Source: a virus
Taxonomy: Duplodnaviria > Caudoviricetes
Virus record (IMG/VR): IMGVR_UViG_3300045285_000049
Location: 1-40,712 of that record
Direction: 5' to 3' (one strand)
DNA: 40,712 nucleotides
Part shown: one piece after another, positions 1-40,712 of the stretch
Layout of the letters: every line of letters starts with the position of its first letter
Position numbering within the stretch: position 1 is the first letter of the stretch
Program-made: the position numbers and the translations under genes
The notes under the pieces: model-generated
What the model was told of the DNA's origin: nothing
The model's input: only the letters and a program-made list of their open reading frames with translations
Databases searched by the model: none

Positions 1-202
1 CAACGATCCGGACGTGATGCCGGAGCAGGTGGACCTGACGTATCCTAGCTACGCTCTCGGCGCCCTGGCGCTGGCCGCACGGGCCGGCGTGCCGCAGGCA
101 CAGGCGTGTTACGACTGGCTGCTGGAGCAGATGCAAGCCAACACCGACGGCAACAGCTACTGTCGGCGCAAATGGGCGATGGCTTCGCCGGCGGGTTACT
201 GA
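1..202 (+). CDS. C-terminal end of the 572-aa protein that starts at 39196 (wraps the circular junction)
   Basis: Terminal GA (40711-40712) plus C (1) gives GAC, followed in frame by AAC GAT CCG GAC GTG ATG CCG to TGA at 200-202. Confidence 0.85.
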   Translation, partial: NDPDVMPEQVDLTYPSYALGALALAARAGVPQAQACYDWLLEQMQANTDGNSYCRRKWAMASPAGY

Positions 203-7894: not shown

Positions 7895-8696
7895 TCTGAC
7901 GCTGCTGGACGACGAGCCGCGGATTCTAGATCTGCGGGTTGCCGAGGCGTTGGACTTCGATCGGCCACGGAATATCCGTAAGCTGATTGAACGAAACACT
8001 GAGGAGTTAGAACGGCATGGGACTTTGCTCCACCATGGAGCAAAGTCCACTGGAGGCCGTCCGTCGGCTGAGTATTGGCTGAACAGAAACCAAGCCATCT
8101 GTATCTGCATGAAGTCGGACGCGCCGCGCGCGGCGGAAGTCCGGGTTGAAATCATCGCGGTGTTTGCGGCGTGGCTGGATGGCCGGCTGCTGCCTAGCAC
8201 CAGCGTGCCGATCACAGCCGAGACTATCGGCTCCATCTTCGAGATGAAGCTGATCCCGGTGAGGCACGATATCCAGCAACTGGACACCAAGGTTGCCAGG
8301 ATTGATGCGAATGTGGTGTTCCTCAACAATCGCGTCGATGACATTGTGCCAAATCGAGCATTCTCTGTGGCATGCACACGTCAATGGAAAACCGTAATAC
8401 TTAAGTATTATAACGGGGAATGCCCAAGTTGCCGCAAGATCACAATCGTGGATGATGCTGGTAGTTCTATCGATGGCGTTTGGAACGACGATCACTTCGA
8501 GGGTCGTGAGCTTAATAGGGTGGCCAACGGCTGGGGTGTCTGTTGCGGCTGCAATCAGAAGATGAAGAACGACCCCTTGTTCAAAATCAGCCGTCGCCAG
8601 CACTTTCAGGTGTTCCATGACTATCGCGTGGTGCTGTTTGGCCGCGACAGGTTGCCGCGCGAGGCGGTGGACCAGATGGAACTCAGCCTACAATGA
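7878..8696 (+). CDS. Antirepressor-like N-terminal domain, coiled coil and HNH-like C-terminal domain
   Basis: DLRVAEALDFDRPRNIRKLIERN...GGRPSAEYWLN; C-terminal CPSC...DHF...CCGCN. Confidence 0.6.
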   Translation: MLQAHDLTLLDDEPRILDLRVAEALDFDRPRNIRKLIERNTEELERHGTLLHHGAKSTGGRPSAEYWLNRNQAICICMKSDAPRAAEVRVEIIAVFAAWLDGRLLPSTSVPITAETIGSIFEMKLIPVRHDIQQLDTKVARIDANVVFLNNRVDDIVPNRAFSVACTRQWKTVILKYYNGECPSCRKITIVDDAGSSIDGVWNDDHFEGRELNRVANGWGVCCGCNQKMKNDPLFKISRRQHFQVFHDYRVVLFGRDRLPREAVDQMELSLQ

Positions 8697-8860
8697 CCCG
8701 CTCGATTGTGGACATTACGGTAGAATCAGCCGTAAACAGTTGCGCCGTCCCGGCTGGAACCGGAACGGCGCTGGAACTGTATCAACTGGCCAAGGCCAGG
8801 CTGAATGGGCACTGTGCAGCGCCTATTTTGCAGACCCCTTGGCCCAGGTCAAGGAGAGCT

Positions 8861-9193
8861 GTGCCTATGTCTCCCAAATGTCCCACGATCGCCGCCATCC
8901 AGGCGGCGGTGGCCGCGCGCTTCCGCGTCACGGTCCTAGATCTGCTGTCCGCCCGCCGCGGTGTGGCGTGCGCGAGGCCACGCCAGGCGGCCATGTGGCT
9001 GTGCCGCCACGCCACCCTGCACACGCTGTCCGAGATCGGCCGCCAGTTCGGCGACCGGGATCACAAGACGGTCCTGAACGCCATCCGGCGGGCTGACGGC
9101 CTGATTGCGGGTGGTGGGGAGTTTGCCGACGCGGCGACCGGGCTGCTGGCCCGGCTGCGTGAGGATCATTCTGGTCGGAGGATTGCGGCATGA
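8861..9193 (+). CDS. Stand-alone DnaA C-terminal (domain IV) HTH protein
   Basis: ARPRQAAMWLCRHATLHTLSEIGRQFGDRDHKTVLNAIRR matches the DnaA domain IV signature; AAGGAG RBS before GTG 8861. Confidence 0.8.
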   Translation: MPMSPKCPTIAAIQAAVAARFRVTVLDLLSARRGVACARPRQAAMWLCRHATLHTLSEIGRQFGDRDHKTVLNAIRRADGLIAGGGEFADAATGLLARLREDHSGRRIAA

Positions 9194-34465: not shown

Positions 34466-36880
34466 ATGGCGGATGACACCACCGCTCCGGCACCGGTACC
34501 AACACCGTCGCCAGATGTGCTGTCGCAACTCGCGCCGTATCTGGCGCTGTTGCAGCAGGGCCAGGCGCAGCCGACCCGCGACATGACGCCGGTAGAGCAG
34601 GACTGGCGATCGAAACTCGGCGAGGCGTTGGGCGGCCCGGTGATGATGCCGAATATGACGCCGGCCGAGCGGCAGGCGTCGGGTTTGATGGCGCTGCGGC
34701 ATTTCGGTCTGGGGATGCTGGGTGCCACCGGTCATGGGGGCACCACCATCGGTGGGCTGCTGTCGGGCGCATTCGAGGGTGCGGAACGTGGCGCGCTCGG
34801 CGCGCAACAGTTCGATGCGTCCACGCTCGCGGCGCAGCAGGAGTATCAGCAGAAGCAGCAGGAGTTGCGGATTTCCGCGATTAAGGAGGCGCTGCCGCTG
34901 CTGTCGCTGCAACAGAGCCAGCAGCGTCTCGGTGCCCTGGGTAATCTTCCGTCATCGCTTGGCGGCCAGACAACGACCACCGGCACCAACATCGCTACGG
35001 GCGGCAGCATCGGCGCCGCTGTACCCCGAGATCCGTCGATTCCCACTATCGGCCAGCAGGGTAACAATCCCGGCAATATCAGCGCGGGCGTCCCCGGCAG
35101 CACCGGCTACATCACGGCTGCGGACGGCCAGAAAGTTGGGGTGTTCCCTGACTTGCCGTCCGGCATTGCAGCGCACAGCGATACCCTATCGGGCTATGCC
35201 GCCAAGGGCATCAACACGGTGACCGACGCGGTGAAAGCCTGGGTCGGGCCGAATGCCGATCCGGCTGTCATCAAGGGTTATGCCGCTGACGTGGCCAAGC
35301 GGATCGGCGTCGATCCAAATGCCAGGGTCGATCTGACGGACCCAACGGTGCAGCGCAACTTTATCCTAGCCCAGCAGCCGCACGAGAGCGGCAAGGCGTG
35401 GCTCAAGCCGGAGGACGTAGACAAGGGCCTAGCCATAGCCGCAGCGCGTCGTGGAGGCGGCACACAGGCCGCTACGCCACCAGCAGCACCGGCGCAGCAG
35501 ACGCCGCCTGCGCCCGCTCCCAGGGCGCCTATAGGCACGCCAGCCGATGCACTGCCGGCCGGTGGCGCGACCGTGGCGGGACCAGCGGGTGCCGCTACCG
35601 TCGGCGCACCTAAGCCACCAGGACCGGCGGTGCCGGGCGACGTGAATGCCATCATCACCGGCATGACCGGGGCCGGGGCCAATGCCGGGACGCTGGCACC
35701 AGGTGGGGCCGTATCAGCGCCGCAAGCGCCCGCTCAGGTGGCGACAACCGCGCCCGTGGTGCCCGCAGCAGATCAGACGCAGTCACCGCCGGCCGCGCCA
35801 GGCGGGCCGCCTGCGTTCAATTACGTCCCGCGCCAACCGCCGCCTGGCACGATCCAGGGTGGCGCTCTGACGCCTGATGAGCAGCGCGTGGTGCAGGACG
35901 CCCGTAACTCCTATGGCGTGGCAATCCGTGCCGCCGCGCTGATCCCCGATGCTGCCAAGGCTGCCGAGGCGCGTGCGCAGGCTGAGGCGACGCTACAGGC
36001 GACGCTGGACAAGGAACTGACGGCGCGCACCGGGCGGACGGACGCCGGCGCCAAGCAACTCACCGACTGGTACAAAGAGGACTTCACCCAGCAGCGGGAC
36101 GTGCATAAGGCTGCCGTCGATGCGTTCTACAAGAACCAGGACACGCAGCAGCAACTAGAAAACCAACTGAAGCTGAAAGCTGCGGAAGGCGAGCAGGCCC
36201 GTCTCACCAACAAAGACCAGGCTGTCAACGCCGCCAATCAGAACGGCCTGATTGCGGCGCAGAAAGAGCAGTCCGAGTCACGCGACAAGGTGGCCGCATT
36301 GGACGGGTTCCGGGCAATCGCCGACGGGGTCGGACAGCCGGGATGGTTGCAGACCACGAAGATGCCCGGCAGCGATAAGACTATAGCGGAGCAATTGGGC
36401 CAACTCGGGATGCCATTGAGCGATACCGGGGGCGTGCAGTTGTTGCACGGCGCCATGACCAATCTCACCAGGGAACTGCGCACAGGTTTGGCGATGGGGA
36501 CGCTATCAGACCGCGATCTTGATTTCGTCGCGCGGTTGGGTCCGACAGATTGGATGGACCCTGACACACGCGCTGCGGCGGTTGGTTATCTGCAGCAGGC
36601 GTATCGCGCGAAGATGCGGTTTGCTTCCGATTTGCAGAAGGAAATGAGCCGCGGCAAGAATTACGGCGACGCCTTCGATGCGGCCGATGCCAAACAGAAG
36701 CCATTCGTGCCAAGTGCCCCGGCTGATCTGACGGCGAATTGGAATGACAATAGCGACGCGTGGGTTAAGGCTCGCACCAAGTGGGCACAGGAGAACGACG
36801 TGCGGCCTGGCACGCTGTTCCATCTCAGCGACGGGTCTATCCATGTGATGAAATCACCTAAGCGACAGGGGCAACCCTGA
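34466..36880 (+). CDS. Internal virion/ejection protein with putative lysozyme-like domain
   Basis: NNPGNI...VFPDLPSGIAA...GINTV...W...Y...VAKRIGV...HESG resembles virion muramidase-like domains. Confidence 0.7.
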   Translation: MADDTTAPAPVPTPSPDVLSQLAPYLALLQQGQAQPTRDMTPVEQDWRSKLGEALGGPVMMPNMTPAERQASGLMALRHFGLGMLGATGHGGTTIGGLLSGAFEGAERGALGAQQFDASTLAAQQEYQQKQQELRISAIKEALPLLSLQQSQQRLGALGNLPSSLGGQTTTTGTNIATGGSIGAAVPRDPSIPTIGQQGNNPGNISAGVPGSTGYITAADGQKVGVFPDLPSGIAAHSDTLSGYAAKGINTVTDAVKAWVGPNADPAVIKGYAADVAKRIGVDPNARVDLTDPTVQRNFILAQQPHESGKAWLKPEDVDKGLAIAAARRGGGTQAATPPAAPAQQTPPAPAPRAPIGTPADALPAGGATVAGPAGAATVGAPKPPGPAVPGDVNAIITGMTGAGANAGTLAPGGAVSAPQAPAQVATTAPVVPAADQTQSPPAAPGGPPAFNYVPRQPPPGTIQGGALTPDEQRVVQDARNSYGVAIRAAALIPDAAKAAEARAQAEATLQATLDKELTARTGRTDAGAKQLTDWYKEDFTQQRDVHKAAVDAFYKNQDTQQQLENQLKLKAAEGEQARLTNKDQAVNAANQNGLIAAQKEQSESRDKVAALDGFRAIADGVGQPGWLQTTKMPGSDKTIAEQLGQLGMPLSDTGGVQLLHGAMTNLTRELRTGLAMGTLSDRDLDFVARLGPTDWMDPDTRAAAVGYLQQAYRAKMRFASDLQKEMSRGKNYGDAFDAADAKQKPFVPSAPADLTANWNDNSDAWVKARTKWAQENDVRPGTLFHLSDGSIHVMKSPKRQGQP

Positions 36881-38385
36881 TGGCAGACGAAGCGCTTGAT
36901 CCGGCAGCCAGTTCAGTGATGGTGGCGCCCGGCGGTCCTAGCGGTGCCACCGACCCTGGTGCCGGTTACTCTGATCCCGGCGGCTCCCCGCCCTACCCGG
37001 AGATGACGCCGCAGCCACCATCTCCCCTTAAGAACAGCTACCATGTGGTGCCGTCCGATACCCGGAGCGGTATTTGGGACGAGATAAAGAATGCCGCCGG
37101 CCGCGTCGGCACGGAGGCGAGCGACGCTTATCAGAACACACCGGCATTGCTGACGGCACCGGCGCGCGATGCCCTGCGGAACTCAGGCTGGCTCGGCAAG
37201 GCGGCGGCATTTGGCGGCGATGTGGGGAGCACAGCGCTGGCGGATTTCTCTGCTCTAGGTGCTGGCACGACCGCTGCGCTCTCCGAGATCCTCAGCGGCG
37301 GCGATCCGCAGAAGGCCAGGGATATCCACGCTGGATTGACAATTGCCCCCGTGCTGCAGTCCGGCGCGCCGCCGTTCGCCGGTCCCAATCTGGGCGGGCG
37401 CGAGCCGTACACGGGCGGGGAGCCACTGCAGGCCAAGCGGATCAATACGCCGGAAGGCGGGATGGAGTTCTACAAGCCGCAGATCAAGATGGCCGAGCAG
37501 TCGGATTTCCGCCTGGCACCGAAATTCACCAACGACTGGCTGGCAAGCCTTGAGGATCACACCACGACCTCGCCCGCGGGCAAGGCGGTCAACCCGGAAG
37601 CCCCGCCGGTCGCCAAGCTGATCGGGGATCTGCGCAATGCGGCCAGTGCGCCGCTGGACAACATCAAGAGCATCCAGGAGGTCGATCAAAGGATACAACG
37701 CGCCATATCGGAGCAGTCCGGTTCTGGTGGTGATCCGAACCAGGTGCGGCAGATGCGTGGCATCCTGCAGGACTTCCGGGACCGCTACGGCAATGTGCCG
37801 CCGGACCAATACACCGGCAGCCCGCAGGGTGTTGCGGCCTTTCAGGACTCGCTCAAGAGCTACGCCGCTGTATCGAGACTACGCGAAGTGCAGGGCCTCA
37901 TTGATAGCACGGAGGGCAACCCCAACCGCTCGACGTTGCTTGCCTCTCGGGTCAACGCCTTCCTCAACGACTCGCGCAATACCAAGGGCTGGAACGATAA
38001 TGAAATCGCCAGCATGCGTCAGGCGGCCAATTCCGGCTTCATGCAGGAATGGATGCGCGCTCAGGGCAGCCGCCTAGTGGGTATTGGCTCTGCTGTTGTC
38101 GGTGGCCCAGCGGGTATGGTTGCAGGCGTGCCGATGCAGGTTGGCCTGTCCTATGCGCTGCGCAACGCCATGGAGGATATGCGGCTCAACAAGGTGCGGG
38201 AGGCCATGGGCGTCCTGGGCCAGCGTGTGCAGCAGCCGGGAACGGTGCCGGCACCACCACCGCCATTCAGACCACCGCCATCGGCTGTCACGGCCGCCCG
38301 CTATGCACCGCTGGTGGGGCTGCTGGGGCAGACGGCGGATCAACCTCGCGACGGTCGCATCTTTCCGCCTATCGGCGGTCAGTAA
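36880..38385 (+). CDS. Internal virion/ejection protein
   Basis: Coupled to the previous gene; helical; position. Confidence 0.65.
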   Translation: MADEALDPAASSVMVAPGGPSGATDPGAGYSDPGGSPPYPEMTPQPPSPLKNSYHVVPSDTRSGIWDEIKNAAGRVGTEASDAYQNTPALLTAPARDALRNSGWLGKAAAFGGDVGSTALADFSALGAGTTAALSEILSGGDPQKARDIHAGLTIAPVLQSGAPPFAGPNLGGREPYTGGEPLQAKRINTPEGGMEFYKPQIKMAEQSDFRLAPKFTNDWLASLEDHTTTSPAGKAVNPEAPPVAKLIGDLRNAASAPLDNIKSIQEVDQRIQRAISEQSGSGGDPNQVRQMRGILQDFRDRYGNVPPDQYTGSPQGVAAFQDSLKSYAAVSRLREVQGLIDSTEGNPNRSTLLASRVNAFLNDSRNTKGWNDNEIASMRQAANSGFMQEWMRAQGSRLVGIGSAVVGGPAGMVAGVPMQVGLSYALRNAMEDMRLNKVREAMGVLGQRVQQPGTVPAPPPPFRPPPSAVTAARYAPLVGLLGQTADQPRDGRIFPPIGGQ

Positions 38386-38468
38386 CCGAGCTTTTCCATG
38401 ATGGCACCGGTCAGGCTGGCCAGCCCCCAAACGATTAGGGGGGCGAGTGCGCAAAAAAGGATGATCAT
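38379..38468 (-). CDS. 29-aa hydrophobic peptide (not in ORF track)
   Basis: MIILFCALAPLIVWGLASLTGAIMEKLGY with GGAG RBS. Confidence 0.5.
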   Translation of the reverse strand: MIILFCALAPLIVWGLASLTGAIMEKLGY

Positions 38469-38486
38469 CTAGTCAGTCTCCAATGC

Positions 38487-38512
38487 GGGGCGCCAGCGTG
38501 AACCGGCGCCCC
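38487..38512. other. GC-rich hairpin between the two peptide genes
   Basis: GGGGCGCC (38487-38494) pairs with GGCGCCCC (38505-38512); no U tract. Confidence 0.6.
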
Positions 38513-38518
38513 TTGGGG

Positions 38519-38644
38519 TTAATAGCAGGTGCGGGTGCAGGTGTTGCCGTAACAGGTCGTCGTGCAACTCGTGTAGGCGTGGGCGGTGGCCGCGATCGTC
38601 GCGGTGCCCATCAGGAGTGCGGCCAGGAGTGCGAGGGTCTTCAT
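38519..38644 (-). CDS. 41-aa secreted four-cysteine peptide (not in ORF track)
   Basis: MKTLALLAALLMGTATIAATAHA-YTSCTTTCYGNTCTRTCY; AAGGA RBS. Confidence 0.75.
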   Translation of the reverse strand: MKTLALLAALLMGTATIAATAHAYTSCTTTCYGNTCTRTCY

Positions 38645-38763
38645 GTCGAGGTTCCTTCTCGGTTGTGCCCAGGATTAGTCAGCGCGGGGACGGGCGGGCC
38701 GTCGCGCTGGTTCGTGGATGGCTGCTAGTCTGGGTGCAGCCGCGGTCGAGGTTCCTTCTCGGT
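38645..38763 (+). repeat. 19-bp direct repeat GTCGAGGTTCCTTCTCGGT, 100 bp apart
   Basis: Copies at 38645-38663 and 38745-38763. Confidence 0.9.
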
Positions 38764-38809
38764 GGCGGTTAGAGGGCGGCGCCTCAGCCCTGGGGCGTCG
38801 TCCTCGCTT
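38738..38809 (+). ncRNA. Two-hairpin element, copy C
   Basis: AGCC-stem-GGTTAG-long hairpin-CGCTT. Confidence 0.55.
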
Positions 38810-38811
38810 AG

Positions 38812-39000
38812 TCAGTGAATGACATGCGCCACGGCCAGGATGATGCCGGCCATGGCAGCAACGCCGGTTAGGATGCCGGCCAGCGCGATCCATGGCGCCC
38901 ACCACATCTCCTGACGCAAGCGGGCCATGTCCAGGTTGGTTTTGTCTATCTGCGCCATCAGCAATTTATCCTCTAACGCCTGTCGCTCGTCATCGGTCAC
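38812..39000 (-). CDS. Small protein with C-terminal TM helix
   Basis: VTDDERQALEDK...WWAPWIALAGILTGVAAMAGIILAVAHVIH. Confidence 0.65.
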   Translation of the reverse strand: MTDDERQALEDKLLMAQIDKTNLDMARLRQEMWWAPWIALAGILTGVAAMAGIILAVAHVIH

Positions 39001-39148
39001 GCGGCGCACCGTGGCGTCGTAGCCACTCGGCAAGCGCTTTGCGCACAATGTACGACAGCGGCCGATCTACCTTAGCCGCCGCATGCTCAAGCTGAACGCG
39101 CAGCTCCGGCGGTAGCCGGATGGTGATTGTCGGAGCGAGTGCTTCCAT
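38990..39148 (-). CDS. Ribbon-helix-helix (CopG/Arc/Mnt-like) regulator
   Basis: TITIRLPPELRVQLEHAAAKVDRPLSYIVRKALAEWL. Confidence 0.85.
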   Translation of the reverse strand: MEALAPTITIRLPPELRVQLEHAAAKVDRPLSYIVRKALAEWLRRHGAPRDR

Positions 39149-39184
39149 GTCCGACCATGTAAGACATCCAGCGTGAGATTGCAA
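39147..39184 (-). promoter_or_regulatory. Putative promoter and operator of the RHH operon
   Basis: TTGCAA-17-TACATG; inverted ATGTC (39147-39151) / GACAT (39163-39167). Confidence 0.5.
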
Positions 39185-39195
39185 GGAGATTCACA

Positions 39196-40712
39196 GTGCC
39201 TGATCCCATCACCAACGAGATCACGCTGACTGTCACGGCCAACTTGCCCGGCTACGAGCCGCTGGATGTTTCAGCCACCGTCACGCTCACGCCACTTGCG
39301 CCAGAGCCACCAGAACCAACACCACCACCGGACGACGACACGGCGCCGCTGTGCGTACGGATCGACTACGGCGGCGCGTCCTACATCTACGACGAGGTGC
39401 TGGGCGTGGACCTCGGCGACTACCACGAGCCAGGCGGCGCATTCGTCCAGCGCTGCGTGCTCTGCACACTGCCCGACCTGGCAGGCTTCCGCGTGCTCTT
39501 CCGCCGTGACCGCGGCGCCGTGCAGCGGGATGAGGTGGTGTTTGAACTCGGCGGCCTGTGGGACACGGTGCCGGCCAATATGGACGCCTACACCGCGACC
39601 ATCATGCGTGGCCCAAGCACGCTCGCCGTGGTGCAGGCACCGGCGCACTACTGGAACGCCCGCTGGCGTTGGCATAGCGCGCCGCGGCCGATCATCTATC
39701 CCGCCGCCAATTATGCAGGGTATATGCTGCCGAACTACTCCGAGAGCCTGTTCGGCCCGGCAATTCCGCTGTCCAATCCGCGCACATATGACGGGCCGAT
39801 GAGTCTTGCTGGTCTCACGGCCTACATCCCCTCGACCGGCGAGCGCGATGAAATCGGCCTGTTCACCGAGGCGCAGGCTGAGTTCCTATGCCAGGGGACT
39901 GATGTGTCATGGTCCTCGGTGCTGGCGCAGCTTGAGGCCAGCGGGACGTTGACCTGGCACTTTCGCGATGACCGCACCAATGCCCCGCTGGATTGGACGC
40001 AATACCCGAATGCCACGATGTACGGCACCGGTGGCGGCGATCCGCAGATTGAGAATCCGGCGTCGCCGATAACCCTGGACCCAGCCCACGAACCGGCGCT
40101 TGCTTATCTGCCGTTCCTGCTGACTGGCGATCCGTATGCACTGGAGGAAATGCAATTCGCTGCCGTCTATGACGTGGTGTGCCTATCACCAGGTGCGCGG
40201 GCCAATTTCAGCTTAGGCAACGCCATTCGCGCCGTCGCCTGGACACTGCGCGGGCTGGCGCGGGCCGCGACTGTGACGCCGGACACCGTGCCGTCGTGGC
40301 TGCTGCCGCGCGCCTTGTTCAAGAGACGGCTGGACGATCAGCAGAAATGGTTTTTGGACCGCTACGTGTCATCTGACGTGCCGCCGTTCTGCAATCTGAA
40401 CCTGATGTCCGATGCCAAGGGCGCGCCGGTCTCGCCGCCGATTCCGGCGGACAGCTACGTCAGTGTGTGGATGGAGGACTTTCTGACAGCCACGCTCGGC
40501 CACGTCGTGCAACTCGGCCACGAGGATTGGCGGCTGATCCTGGAGTGGAAGTCGCTCGATGTGATGTCCCGCACCAATGGCACCTCGGGCTGGGTGCGTG
40601 CGGTGCCGACGCTCTACACGCTCGTGGTCAAGGCGGCGTCTGATGCGCCGTACGCCGACCACTGGGGTGTTGCCTGGGATCTCAACGAGCATTTCCAGCC
40701 GTCGGCTGTGGA
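39196..40712 (+). CDS. Large protein (572 aa including wrap), possible carbohydrate-active alpha/alpha-barrel; absent from ORF track
   Basis: AAGGAG RBS, GTG start, frame open to the end of the window; DPAHEPALAYLPFLLTGDPYALEEMQF motif. Confidence 0.8.
   Translation, partial: MPDPITNEITLTVTANLPGYEPLDVSATVTLTPLAPEPPEPTPPPDDDTAPLCVRIDYGGASYIYDEVLGVDLGDYHEPGGAFVQRCVLCTLPDLAGFRVLFRRDRGAVQRDEVVFELGGLWDTVPANMDAYTATIMRGPSTLAVVQAPAHYWNARWRWHSAPRPIIYPAANYAGYMLPNYSESLFGPAIPLSNPRTYDGPMSLAGLTAYIPSTGERDEIGLFTEAQAEFLCQGTDVSWSSVLAQLEASGTLTWHFRDDRTNAPLDWTQYPNATMYGTGGGDPQIENPASPITLDPAHEPALAYLPFLLTGDPYALEEMQFAAVYDVVCLSPGARANFSLGNAIRAVAWTLRGLARAATVTPDTVPSWLLPRALFKRRLDDQQKWFLDRYVSSDVPPFCNLNLMSDAKGAPVSPPIPADSYVSVWMEDFLTATLGHVVQLGHEDWRLILEWKSLDVMSRTNGTSGWVRAVPTLYTLVVKAASDAPYADHWGVAWDLNEHFQPSAV

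Follow-up and report, generated by a model that had tools for sequence, protein, structure and literature searches.

A widespread family of phage-carried, neutral disulfide-hairpin peptides that are predicted to be exported

We have identified a widespread and unnamed family of phage-carried, neutral disulfide hairpins that are predicted to be exported and that have been missed by annotation. Disulfide β-hairpin peptides are known mainly as cationic defence molecules of animals, and the phage family is a neutral version of them. The member described here is encoded in a virus record of 40,712 bases, the whole of which is referred to as the window; CheckV rates the record as 99% complete. The family is best filed among phage envelope-modifying accessory proteins. 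As its role we tentatively propose, with a probability of roughly 35%, that the 18-residue product would dock in the periplasm by its free C-terminal strand on a conserved host envelope protein and would thereby exclude later phages. If active, the peptide would reveal a mechanism of exclusion not known before, and it might also offer a new scaffold for attacking the Gram-negative envelope. A peptide of 18 residues can be synthesized, so that its function is directly testable.

The peptide gene and its precursor

The gene and the predicted parts of its product are the following.

38519..38644, minus strand: hairpin-peptide gene, with ATG start, 41 aa precursor and stop
38576..38644, minus strand: predicted Sec signal peptide, residues 1-23, ending in A-H-A (sequence heuristics and an AlphaFold2 helix at 3-13; putative cleavage site)
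38522..38575, minus strand: predicted mature 18-mer with two strands, a Gly-Asn turn, four Cys and a terminal Tyr

The 41 aa ORF translates into MKTLALLAALLMGTATIAATAHA followed by YTSCTTTCYGNTCTRTCY and a stop, and an AAGGA ribosome-binding site lies 8 nt 5' of the ATG. The C-x3-C-x4-C-x3-C spacing of the mature part occurs once in the window; when the window was shuffled 100 times in 2-base blocks, the spacing arose 0.07 times on average and once at most. Taken alone, the spacing is only moderately unlikely to arise by chance; it is the homologues described below that settle the question of whether the ORF is a genuine gene. Comparison with them confirms the observation, made in a preliminary description of this DNA, of a real gene for an 18-mer with this cysteine pattern. 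The doubly oxidised 18-mer would have a monoisotopic mass of 2036.74 Da. Cleavage of the precursor is predicted; so are export to the periplasm, oxidation and a rigid hairpin fold, and for these three the evolutionary support is good. No contig covered the peptide coding sequence in four metatranscriptome runs, which are probably two data sets; the nearest material consists of 151-nt pieces at 38668-38817 and 39023-39173 that may be DNA.

Family size and conservation

A single-sequence search with the window peptide retrieved 6 relatives, in which the N-termini diverge and the mature part hardly varies. A profile search extended the family to 104 proteins among 407 candidates. The profile also gave 34 cluster representatives, one of which is spurious; P0107, an unrelated repeat protein in this set, was excluded. 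A search with the core DNA pattern, which required neither signal peptide nor stop nor terminal aromatic, identified 81 viral loci, many of them near-duplicates. The stop falls one residue past the last Cys in all 81, the last residue is Tyr or Phe in 78, and a signal-like N-terminal segment is seen by eye in every locus except one where no more than 16 codons precede the core.

Over 71 aligned proteins the identity is 31% in the signal region and 77% in the core, or 69% when the cysteines are left out. Between the cores of the window and of locus L050, 5 of the 10 synonymous sites differ and 1 of the 35 non-synonymous sites. The corresponding proportions among 66 distinct DNA cores are pS 0.92 and pN 0.11, the latter being lowered by the search pattern. 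Sequence comparison thus indicates that the mature part is under selection. Members of the family are found in soil, lake and ocean phages and in a few SAR11 genomes, and the core is nearly alike across soil phages, lake phages and SAR11.

The export features of 118 family proteins have been scored by simple heuristics, which, rather than SignalP, also gave the AHA cleavage site of the window peptide. A basic n-region is present in 116, a hydrophobic h-region in all 118, and a small-x-Ala site shortly before the first Cys in 116. Together with the helix at 3-13 of the AlphaFold2 model these features support the earlier proposal of an exported peptide with a signal ending in AHA. The possibility, also raised earlier, that homologues lack the cysteines and the signal is not borne out, both being kept. 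A lipobox directly before the first Cys was found in none of the 118 proteins, all short forms, which speaks against a bacterial lipoprotein identity for the short forms. Three longer homologues have been inspected as possible fusions; two have over-long N-termini and one is an apparent read-through, so that no real fusion protein is present among them.

Scans of the peptide family against PHROGs, NCBIfam and PADLOC were empty, and Pfam gave a sub-threshold signal-peptide match only. No match was obtained with the window peptide in a PDB sequence search, in which very short chains are poorly covered, or by tblastn in 50,697 GenBank phages or 72,556 plasmids. Fold searches with the hairpin model returned nothing significant, and they are weak tests for a model so short. 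Three unnamed clusters under 0.9 in the ESM Atlas serve as leads only. Four core motifs were found in no paper of the literature searched, nor in the supplements of PMC12856327. Topic searches of the literature found no such hairpin family. Fremin et al. 2022, which is said to be a catalogue of small phage genes, lies outside the scope of these searches and may list the family without a function.

Fold, cysteines and composition

The AlphaFold2 model of the precursor has strands at 27-32 and 35-40, with a pLDDT of about 82 in the strand block, and the register of the strands would place C4-C17 and C8-C13 across the hairpin. The predicted strands and paired cysteines are in line with the two-disulfide β-hairpin suggested before. 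Among 172 distinct C-termini the loop has 4 residues in 147 and 8 in 22. With one or the other length in 169 of the 172, the register of the hairpin is kept. A 30-residue long form has in its model a third strand, always added on the N-terminal side.

The cysteines of 21 long forms are gained and lost in pairs. Cys occupies columns 21 and 38 together in 18 sequences and neither column in 3; for columns 27 and 32 the corresponding numbers are 4 and 17. The totals are always 4, 6 or 8. This pattern favours disulfides over metal binding, and the covariation may rest on just two evolutionary events. It is scarcely probable that the two CxxxC motifs bind a periplasmic metal such as Cu(I) or Zn in place of forming disulfides. 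The four cysteines are kept and CxxxC is a known copper-binding motif, e.g. of Sco proteins, but the extra cysteines come in cross-strand pairs and even counts, and His and Met are rare.

The chain ends one residue after the last Cys in 158 of the 172 distinct C-termini. The last residue is aromatic in 164, including 13 of the 14 longer tails, and this terminal aromatic may be a hairpin cap with a purely structural role. A further aromatic or hydrophobic residue at -2 is present in 16 of the 172, mainly in SAR11 forms, and the window peptide has Thr at this position.

The family core is composed of 30% Thr and 3.3% Arg, with 0.3% Val, Ile and Leu together and almost no Lys. The net side-chain charge in a set of 100 is 0 in 50 and +1 in 42. 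The window peptide has one Arg. The hairpin strands are neutral and proline-free with Thr on both faces. The Thr-rich and barely charged composition makes membrane lysis unlikely, in agreement with the earlier view of a nearly uncharged, non-lytic peptide.

It is conceivable, though distinctly doubtful, that in the periplasm such hairpins associate along their edges to build a flat sheet or fibril with Thr/Tyr faces, or that they bind a regular glycan, for example peptidoglycan. Either way the envelope as a whole would be altered, and no one protein would be the target. The neutral, proline-free strands with Thr on both faces would suit this arrangement, as would the growth of the family by addition of a similar strand, and near-identical cores in distant hosts would need no co-evolving partner. 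A polymer would not, however, require a strictly terminal aromatic or the tolerance of both 4- and 8-residue loops.

The cysteine spacing of tachyplesin is identical to that of the window peptide, and that of protegrin is different. Tachyplesin, polyphemusin and gomesin are described, in the part of a review that deals with β-hairpin antimicrobial peptides, as hairpins of 17-18 residues with two disulfides; the examples given there are from animals and phages are not mentioned (PMC13001179). The 18-mer, in its predicted fold, falls within the limits of 11-25 residues, a hairpin and at least one disulfide pair, and its single Arg is the lower bound of the range given for the class in the same part of that review. 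The family resembles the tachyplesin class in size, disulfide number and predicted hairpin. The tachyplesin class is cationic, Arg-rich and amphipathic, whereas the hairpin family is phage-encoded, almost uncharged and Thr-rich, with a probably free aromatic C-terminus. An antibacterial released at lysis, damaging the membranes of neighbouring cells or acting on a periplasmic target in them, would fit the shared size and disulfide number. We regard it as highly improbable, since tachyplesins as described there have Val/Trp/Ile strands and many Arg (PMC13001179), against a charge of 0 or +1 in 92 of 100 and strands without aliphatics in the family, and no constant immunity gene is seen.

The phage genome and the cassette

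The window encodes portal, capsid, scaffold, terminase, ejection-type, Erf, Gam, CI-like and replication-initiator proteins. Its capsid is related at 32-39% identity to those of podophages of Proteobacteria, which suggests a proteobacterial host for the phage. The record is probably circular, since the ORF starting at 39196 reads through into bases 1-202. The early region is lambda-like, with CI-like repressor, anti-repressor-like and replication-initiator genes. The peptide gene belongs to a leftward cassette situated between ejection-type genes and the 39196 gene, and the elements of this part of the genome are as follows.

34466..36880, plus strand: ejection-type protein (phrog_873, E 2e-17) with a muramidase-like domain at about residues 187-329 (35027-35470)
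36880..38385, plus strand: last ejection-type gene, convergent with the cassette, assigned by position and with no family match itself
38379..38468, minus strand: 29-aa hydrophobic ORF, in sieA position
38472..38518, minus strand: GC-rich stem-loop with the next ribosome-binding site, fixed 3' flank of a slot (z -3.6)
38645..38810, minus strand: non-coding leader, 163/166 nt identical in relatives with other peptide alleles
38645..38663, minus strand: 19-nt element with ribosome-binding site, copy 1 of an exact direct repeat (2 matches, 0 expected)
38745..38763, minus strand: copy 2 of the 19-nt element, without a following start codon
38812..39000, minus strand: small protein with C-terminal hydrophobic segment (phrog_6330, E 0.002)
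38990..39148, minus strand: ribbon-helix-helix (RHH) regulator at the cassette head, in mnt position (Pfam RHH_1 over cut-off)
39156..39184, minus strand: candidate promoter TTGCAA, 17 nt, TACATG, read from the sequence, 7 nt before the RHH start
39196-40712 and 1-202, plus strand: 572-aa ORF across the genome ends, in tail-spike position, its identity given by position only

Upstream of the last ejection-type gene, the ORF at 32852 matches a DNA-ejection PHROG, and the muramidase-like domain of 34466..36880 is similar to an endolysin of known structure (PDB 7q47, E 9e-5). No PHROG, Pfam or NCBIfam match was found for the 505 residues scanned of the 39196 ORF. In leftward order the cassette comprises the RHH regulator, the small membrane-anchored protein, the leader of 166 nt, the hairpin gene, the GC stem-loop and the 29-aa membrane peptide. 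The product of 38812..39000 is probably a coiled coil plus membrane anchor, and a different allele of its gene is present in L106. The candidate promoter was not picked up in a consensus promoter scan; with this promoter the RHH gene is possibly leaderless, and the divergent 39196 gene lies about 50 bases away. The leader folds with a z of -1.9 only, and the 3' stem-loop has a match to Rfam BjrC68 that is below threshold. The second copy of the 19-nt element is retained in L105 and L106. Both copies could fold into a short stem whose loop contains GGA. The 29-aa ORF has no family match in PHROGs, Pfam, NCBIfam or PADLOC.

The arrangement mirrors the immI region of phage P22. The P22 order 7-20-16 / sieA-orf59a-mnt / 9 is matched by ejection-type genes, a leftward series of small membrane, hairpin, small membrane and RHH genes, and a rightward gene. 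Like the P22 cassette, that of the window is leftward, RHH-headed and placed between ejection genes and the next late gene. The P22 protein SieA blocks DNA injection, according to the portion of the source that deals with it (10.1101/2023.08.15.553423). SieA is a 164-aa inner-membrane protein, whereas the hairpin is a predicted soluble 18-mer with alleles that do not track the ejection gene, and none of the PHROG, Pfam, NCBIfam and PADLOC families indicates SieA homology for it. The window phage also differs from P22 in having no detectable integrase.

A swappable slot

The slot is hypervariable. In contigs from 4 of 4 independent soil or rhizosphere runs, bases 38529-38641 are swapped for 128 others with the flanks unchanged. 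L108 and L109 keep the RHH gene (157/157 nt) and the leader (163/166) and have 8-residue-loop alleles of the hairpin. A comparison of 13 loci, which includes the window and some duplicates and leaves out L112 as a duplicate of L107, found a hairpin allele in the slot in 9 and another exported peptide, a lipoprotein or a coiled-coil gene in the other 4. The non-hairpin occupants are small proteins, mostly predicted to be exported or membrane-bound. Occupants observed in L107 and L115, where they lie 5' of the conserved stem-loop, and in L116 and L119 are a 45-aa exported Gly/Tyr-rich two-Cys peptide and a 110-aa glycine-rich lipoprotein.

Hairpin alleles and ejection genes have been compared among these loci. 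L118 shares with the window an ejection protein (84%) and the 29-aa gene (82/90 nt), yet it has another hairpin allele. L109 and L119 have ejection proteins 95% alike and different hairpin alleles, and L117 and L119 have one mature hairpin allele in common and ejection proteins without mutual match. Judged by these loci, a given allele of the last ejection-type gene occurs with different hairpin alleles, and a given hairpin allele with different ejection genes. The 29-aa gene, in contrast, stays with its ejection protein, the two being shared by the window, L111 and L118, and the last small membrane gene with the convergent ejection allele is a candidate cognate SieA-like exclusion pair. Similar 21-24-aa genes occupy the last cassette position in L109 and L119, which have a common ejection protein. 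In many related soil phages, small genes that can replace one another are flanked by the conserved non-coding spacers 38472-38518 and 38645-38810, which carry ribosome-binding sites. The arrangement resembles an array of cassettes that recombination at the spacers has shuffled.

The location beside ejection genes could suggest that the hairpin inhibits related virions on their way in, by plugging their muramidase or a different ejection protein. Spackle of phage T4 is reported to be an inhibitor of this kind: a small, early, exported phage protein acting in the periplasm (PMC7677548). The hairpin would share with it the predicted periplasmic compartment and a probable earliness, and one of the neighbouring ejection genes encodes a muramidase-like domain. 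It is, however, much smaller than Spackle, and no single muramidase goes with it. Its alleles are uncoupled from the last ejection gene. In the DNA compared for five phages with this muramidase, which in three extends to 5 kb downstream, no hairpin is seen. In L001 an almost identical peptide occurs with a different muramidase motif, and the lake phages with the hairpin have another surrounding gene layout. We consider a Spackle-like role unlikely. Spackle is absent from the match lists of the PDB sequence and fold searches with the hairpin, which are weak for short chains. A complex prediction for the window muramidase domain with peptide residues 12-41 gave a score of 0.01, the peptide's own fold being uncertain in it, and it weighs neither for nor against such binding.

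AimP of arbitrium is a short linear peptide read by the adjacent AimR in Bacillus phages, and like the hairpin it is made as a short phage precursor with a signal peptide and allelic variants. The preliminary description had suggested a receptor plug or a signal, and one different from arbitrium. A receptor plug would be a plausible role, and the support for a signal is weak. An arbitrium-like signal would be set free at lysis and sensed in later infections, which would alter their strategy. It would accord with the signal peptide and short mature part, with alleles that differ among close phages, with disulfides that would give stability outside the cell, and with the location of some lake copies between cro and the replication initiator. 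Such a signal seems very unlikely. AimR has no counterpart in the window, the match being below cut-off (NF038310, 12.5 bits against 70) and confined to the HTH part. A CI-like repressor is present, but no tyrosine integrase or resolvase was found in the 99%-complete record. No constant receptor gene recurs among the neighbours, near-identical mature sequences in unrelated phages would give poor signal specificity, and a 2-kDa hairpin should not cross the outer membrane unaided.

Lake and SAR11 forms

The phages with the 30-residue form would have freshwater hosts, as judged by GC content and gene content. A tblastn search with the long form matched two phage records, both from spring water. 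In 22 loci parsed out of 23 chosen by hand, the long-form gene is often located directly after ssb or cro, or else ahead of the replication initiator; five such neighbours were confirmed. By its neighbours the hairpin gene is probably early in lake phages. The top BFVD match to the long form (47%, E 0.0014) is UniProt A0A6J5M8Q5, a 49-aa protein of an uncultured phage that was automatically named 'Lipoprotein' and that is very probably a member of the hairpin family. In GenBank MW202462 (L126, 755-895) the long-form gene is unannotated and an opposite-strand shadow ORF has been annotated instead.

Copies of the hairpin are encoded in 4 Pelagibacteraceae genomes. Among sampled genomes it occurs in 2 of 301 of this family and in 1 of 401 of its class, the one being the seed genome; of five SAR11-family matches, three contained stops and were dropped. 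Most SAR11 copies adjoin PrsW and CII-like genes, and the SAR11 forms end in Tyr-x-Tyr. In L020-L022 and L121 the hairpin gene is divergent from a CII-like gene, PrsW and arrays of pentameric ligand-gated-channel-like genes. In L019 it follows the gene of a 1475-aa PDZ-CHAT protease. Ice binding through Thr-Cys-Thr has been considered and set aside, a single hairpin being too small a surface and the SAR11 genome series carrying the hairpin being from warm seas.

The SAR11 termini recall exported microproteins such as MucE and DimA that act through C-terminal aromatics (PMC12780092, PMC8545111, in the portions on these proteins). The terminal aromatic of the hairpin might likewise enter the PDZ domain of a periplasmic HtrA protease and turn on an envelope-stress sigma factor, by which the surface would be remodelled. 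The Tyr-x-Tyr ends and the copy after the PDZ-CHAT gene would be consistent with such a trigger. DimA, as described in those portions, requires aromatics at 0 and -2 for AlgW, whereas a hydrophobic -2 residue is rare in the family. A PDZ neighbour over the Pfam cut-off is found in 1 of the 5 SAR11 loci, the neighbours of three having been scanned. The likelihood of this role appears small.

Proposed role

We return to the proposal that the hairpin binds the host envelope and excludes later phages. The peptide would be expressed early from the RHH-headed cassette, as a signal-bearing precursor that would be exported to the host periplasm and cleaved to the 18-residue product. This is predicted to fold into a two-disulfide β-hairpin, and its free C-terminal edge strand would bind a conserved envelope protein of the host and not of the phage. 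Later phages would be kept out once the envelope protein is bound.

The position of the cassette, the company of small exported or membrane genes and the early site of the gene elsewhere argue for an envelope modification that excludes competitors. Independence from the phage's own ejection allele, together with near-identity across distant hosts, makes the target look like a host feature, and the near-letter conservation across these hosts points to a conserved envelope target or to a general physical property. An always-free C-terminal strand with a terminal aromatic suggests docking by the edge strand. The third strand is added only on the N-terminal side and the terminal aromatic is kept, so that the C-terminal edge looks functional.

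Some observations weigh against exclusion and docking. The 29-aa membrane gene, which tracks the ejection allele, is a better SieA analogue than the hairpin. The SAR11 copies are chromosomal, with PrsW and CII-like genes as neighbours, and they may have a purpose other than exclusion. The two best-known envelope sites that recognize a C-terminal aromatic, strand 1 of BamA and the DegS/AlgW PDZ domain, both demand an aromatic or hydrophobic residue at -2, which the window peptide lacks.

The aromatic end can be compared with known ligands of the envelope machinery. Llp peptides and darobactin on BamA, and MucE and DimA on AlgW, act by a β-strand or a C-terminal aromatic. MucE and DimA are exported small proteins ending in an aromatic, as is the hairpin in 164 of 172 C-termini, with export predicted. 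Ligands of BamA strand 1 carry an aromatic/hydrophobic pair at 0 and -2, according to the relevant part of 10.64898/2026.09.25.754295. The BamA and AlgW ligands have this pair, whereas it is found in only 16 of the 172 in the hairpin family; the account of DimA mentions, in the part that concerns it, no cysteine or disulfide.

A more specific possibility, which we hold to be doubtful, is that the hairpin is a β-strand mimic stapled by DsbA, a viral counterpart of thanatin or darobactin, that jams a conserved outer-membrane assembly or uptake machine in diverse Gram-negative hosts. Such a mimic would be delivered from inside, so that cationic charge would not be needed. If this were true, the hundreds of natural, synthesizable 2-kDa variants would form a library of envelope inhibitors. 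The rest of the probability, after the exclusion proposal and the six other explanations, belongs to roles that have not been considered here.

Of the preliminary interpretation, the export signal, the hairpin and the non-lytic character have stood; the wide family of two- and three-stranded forms, the terminal aromatic and the swappable sieA-like slot had been missed. Elsewhere in the window, immediately ahead of the replication initiator, 8693-9193 (plus strand) encodes a phage protein in which the C-terminal DNA-binding domain of DnaA is recognized (TIGR00362 partial, E 3e-22).
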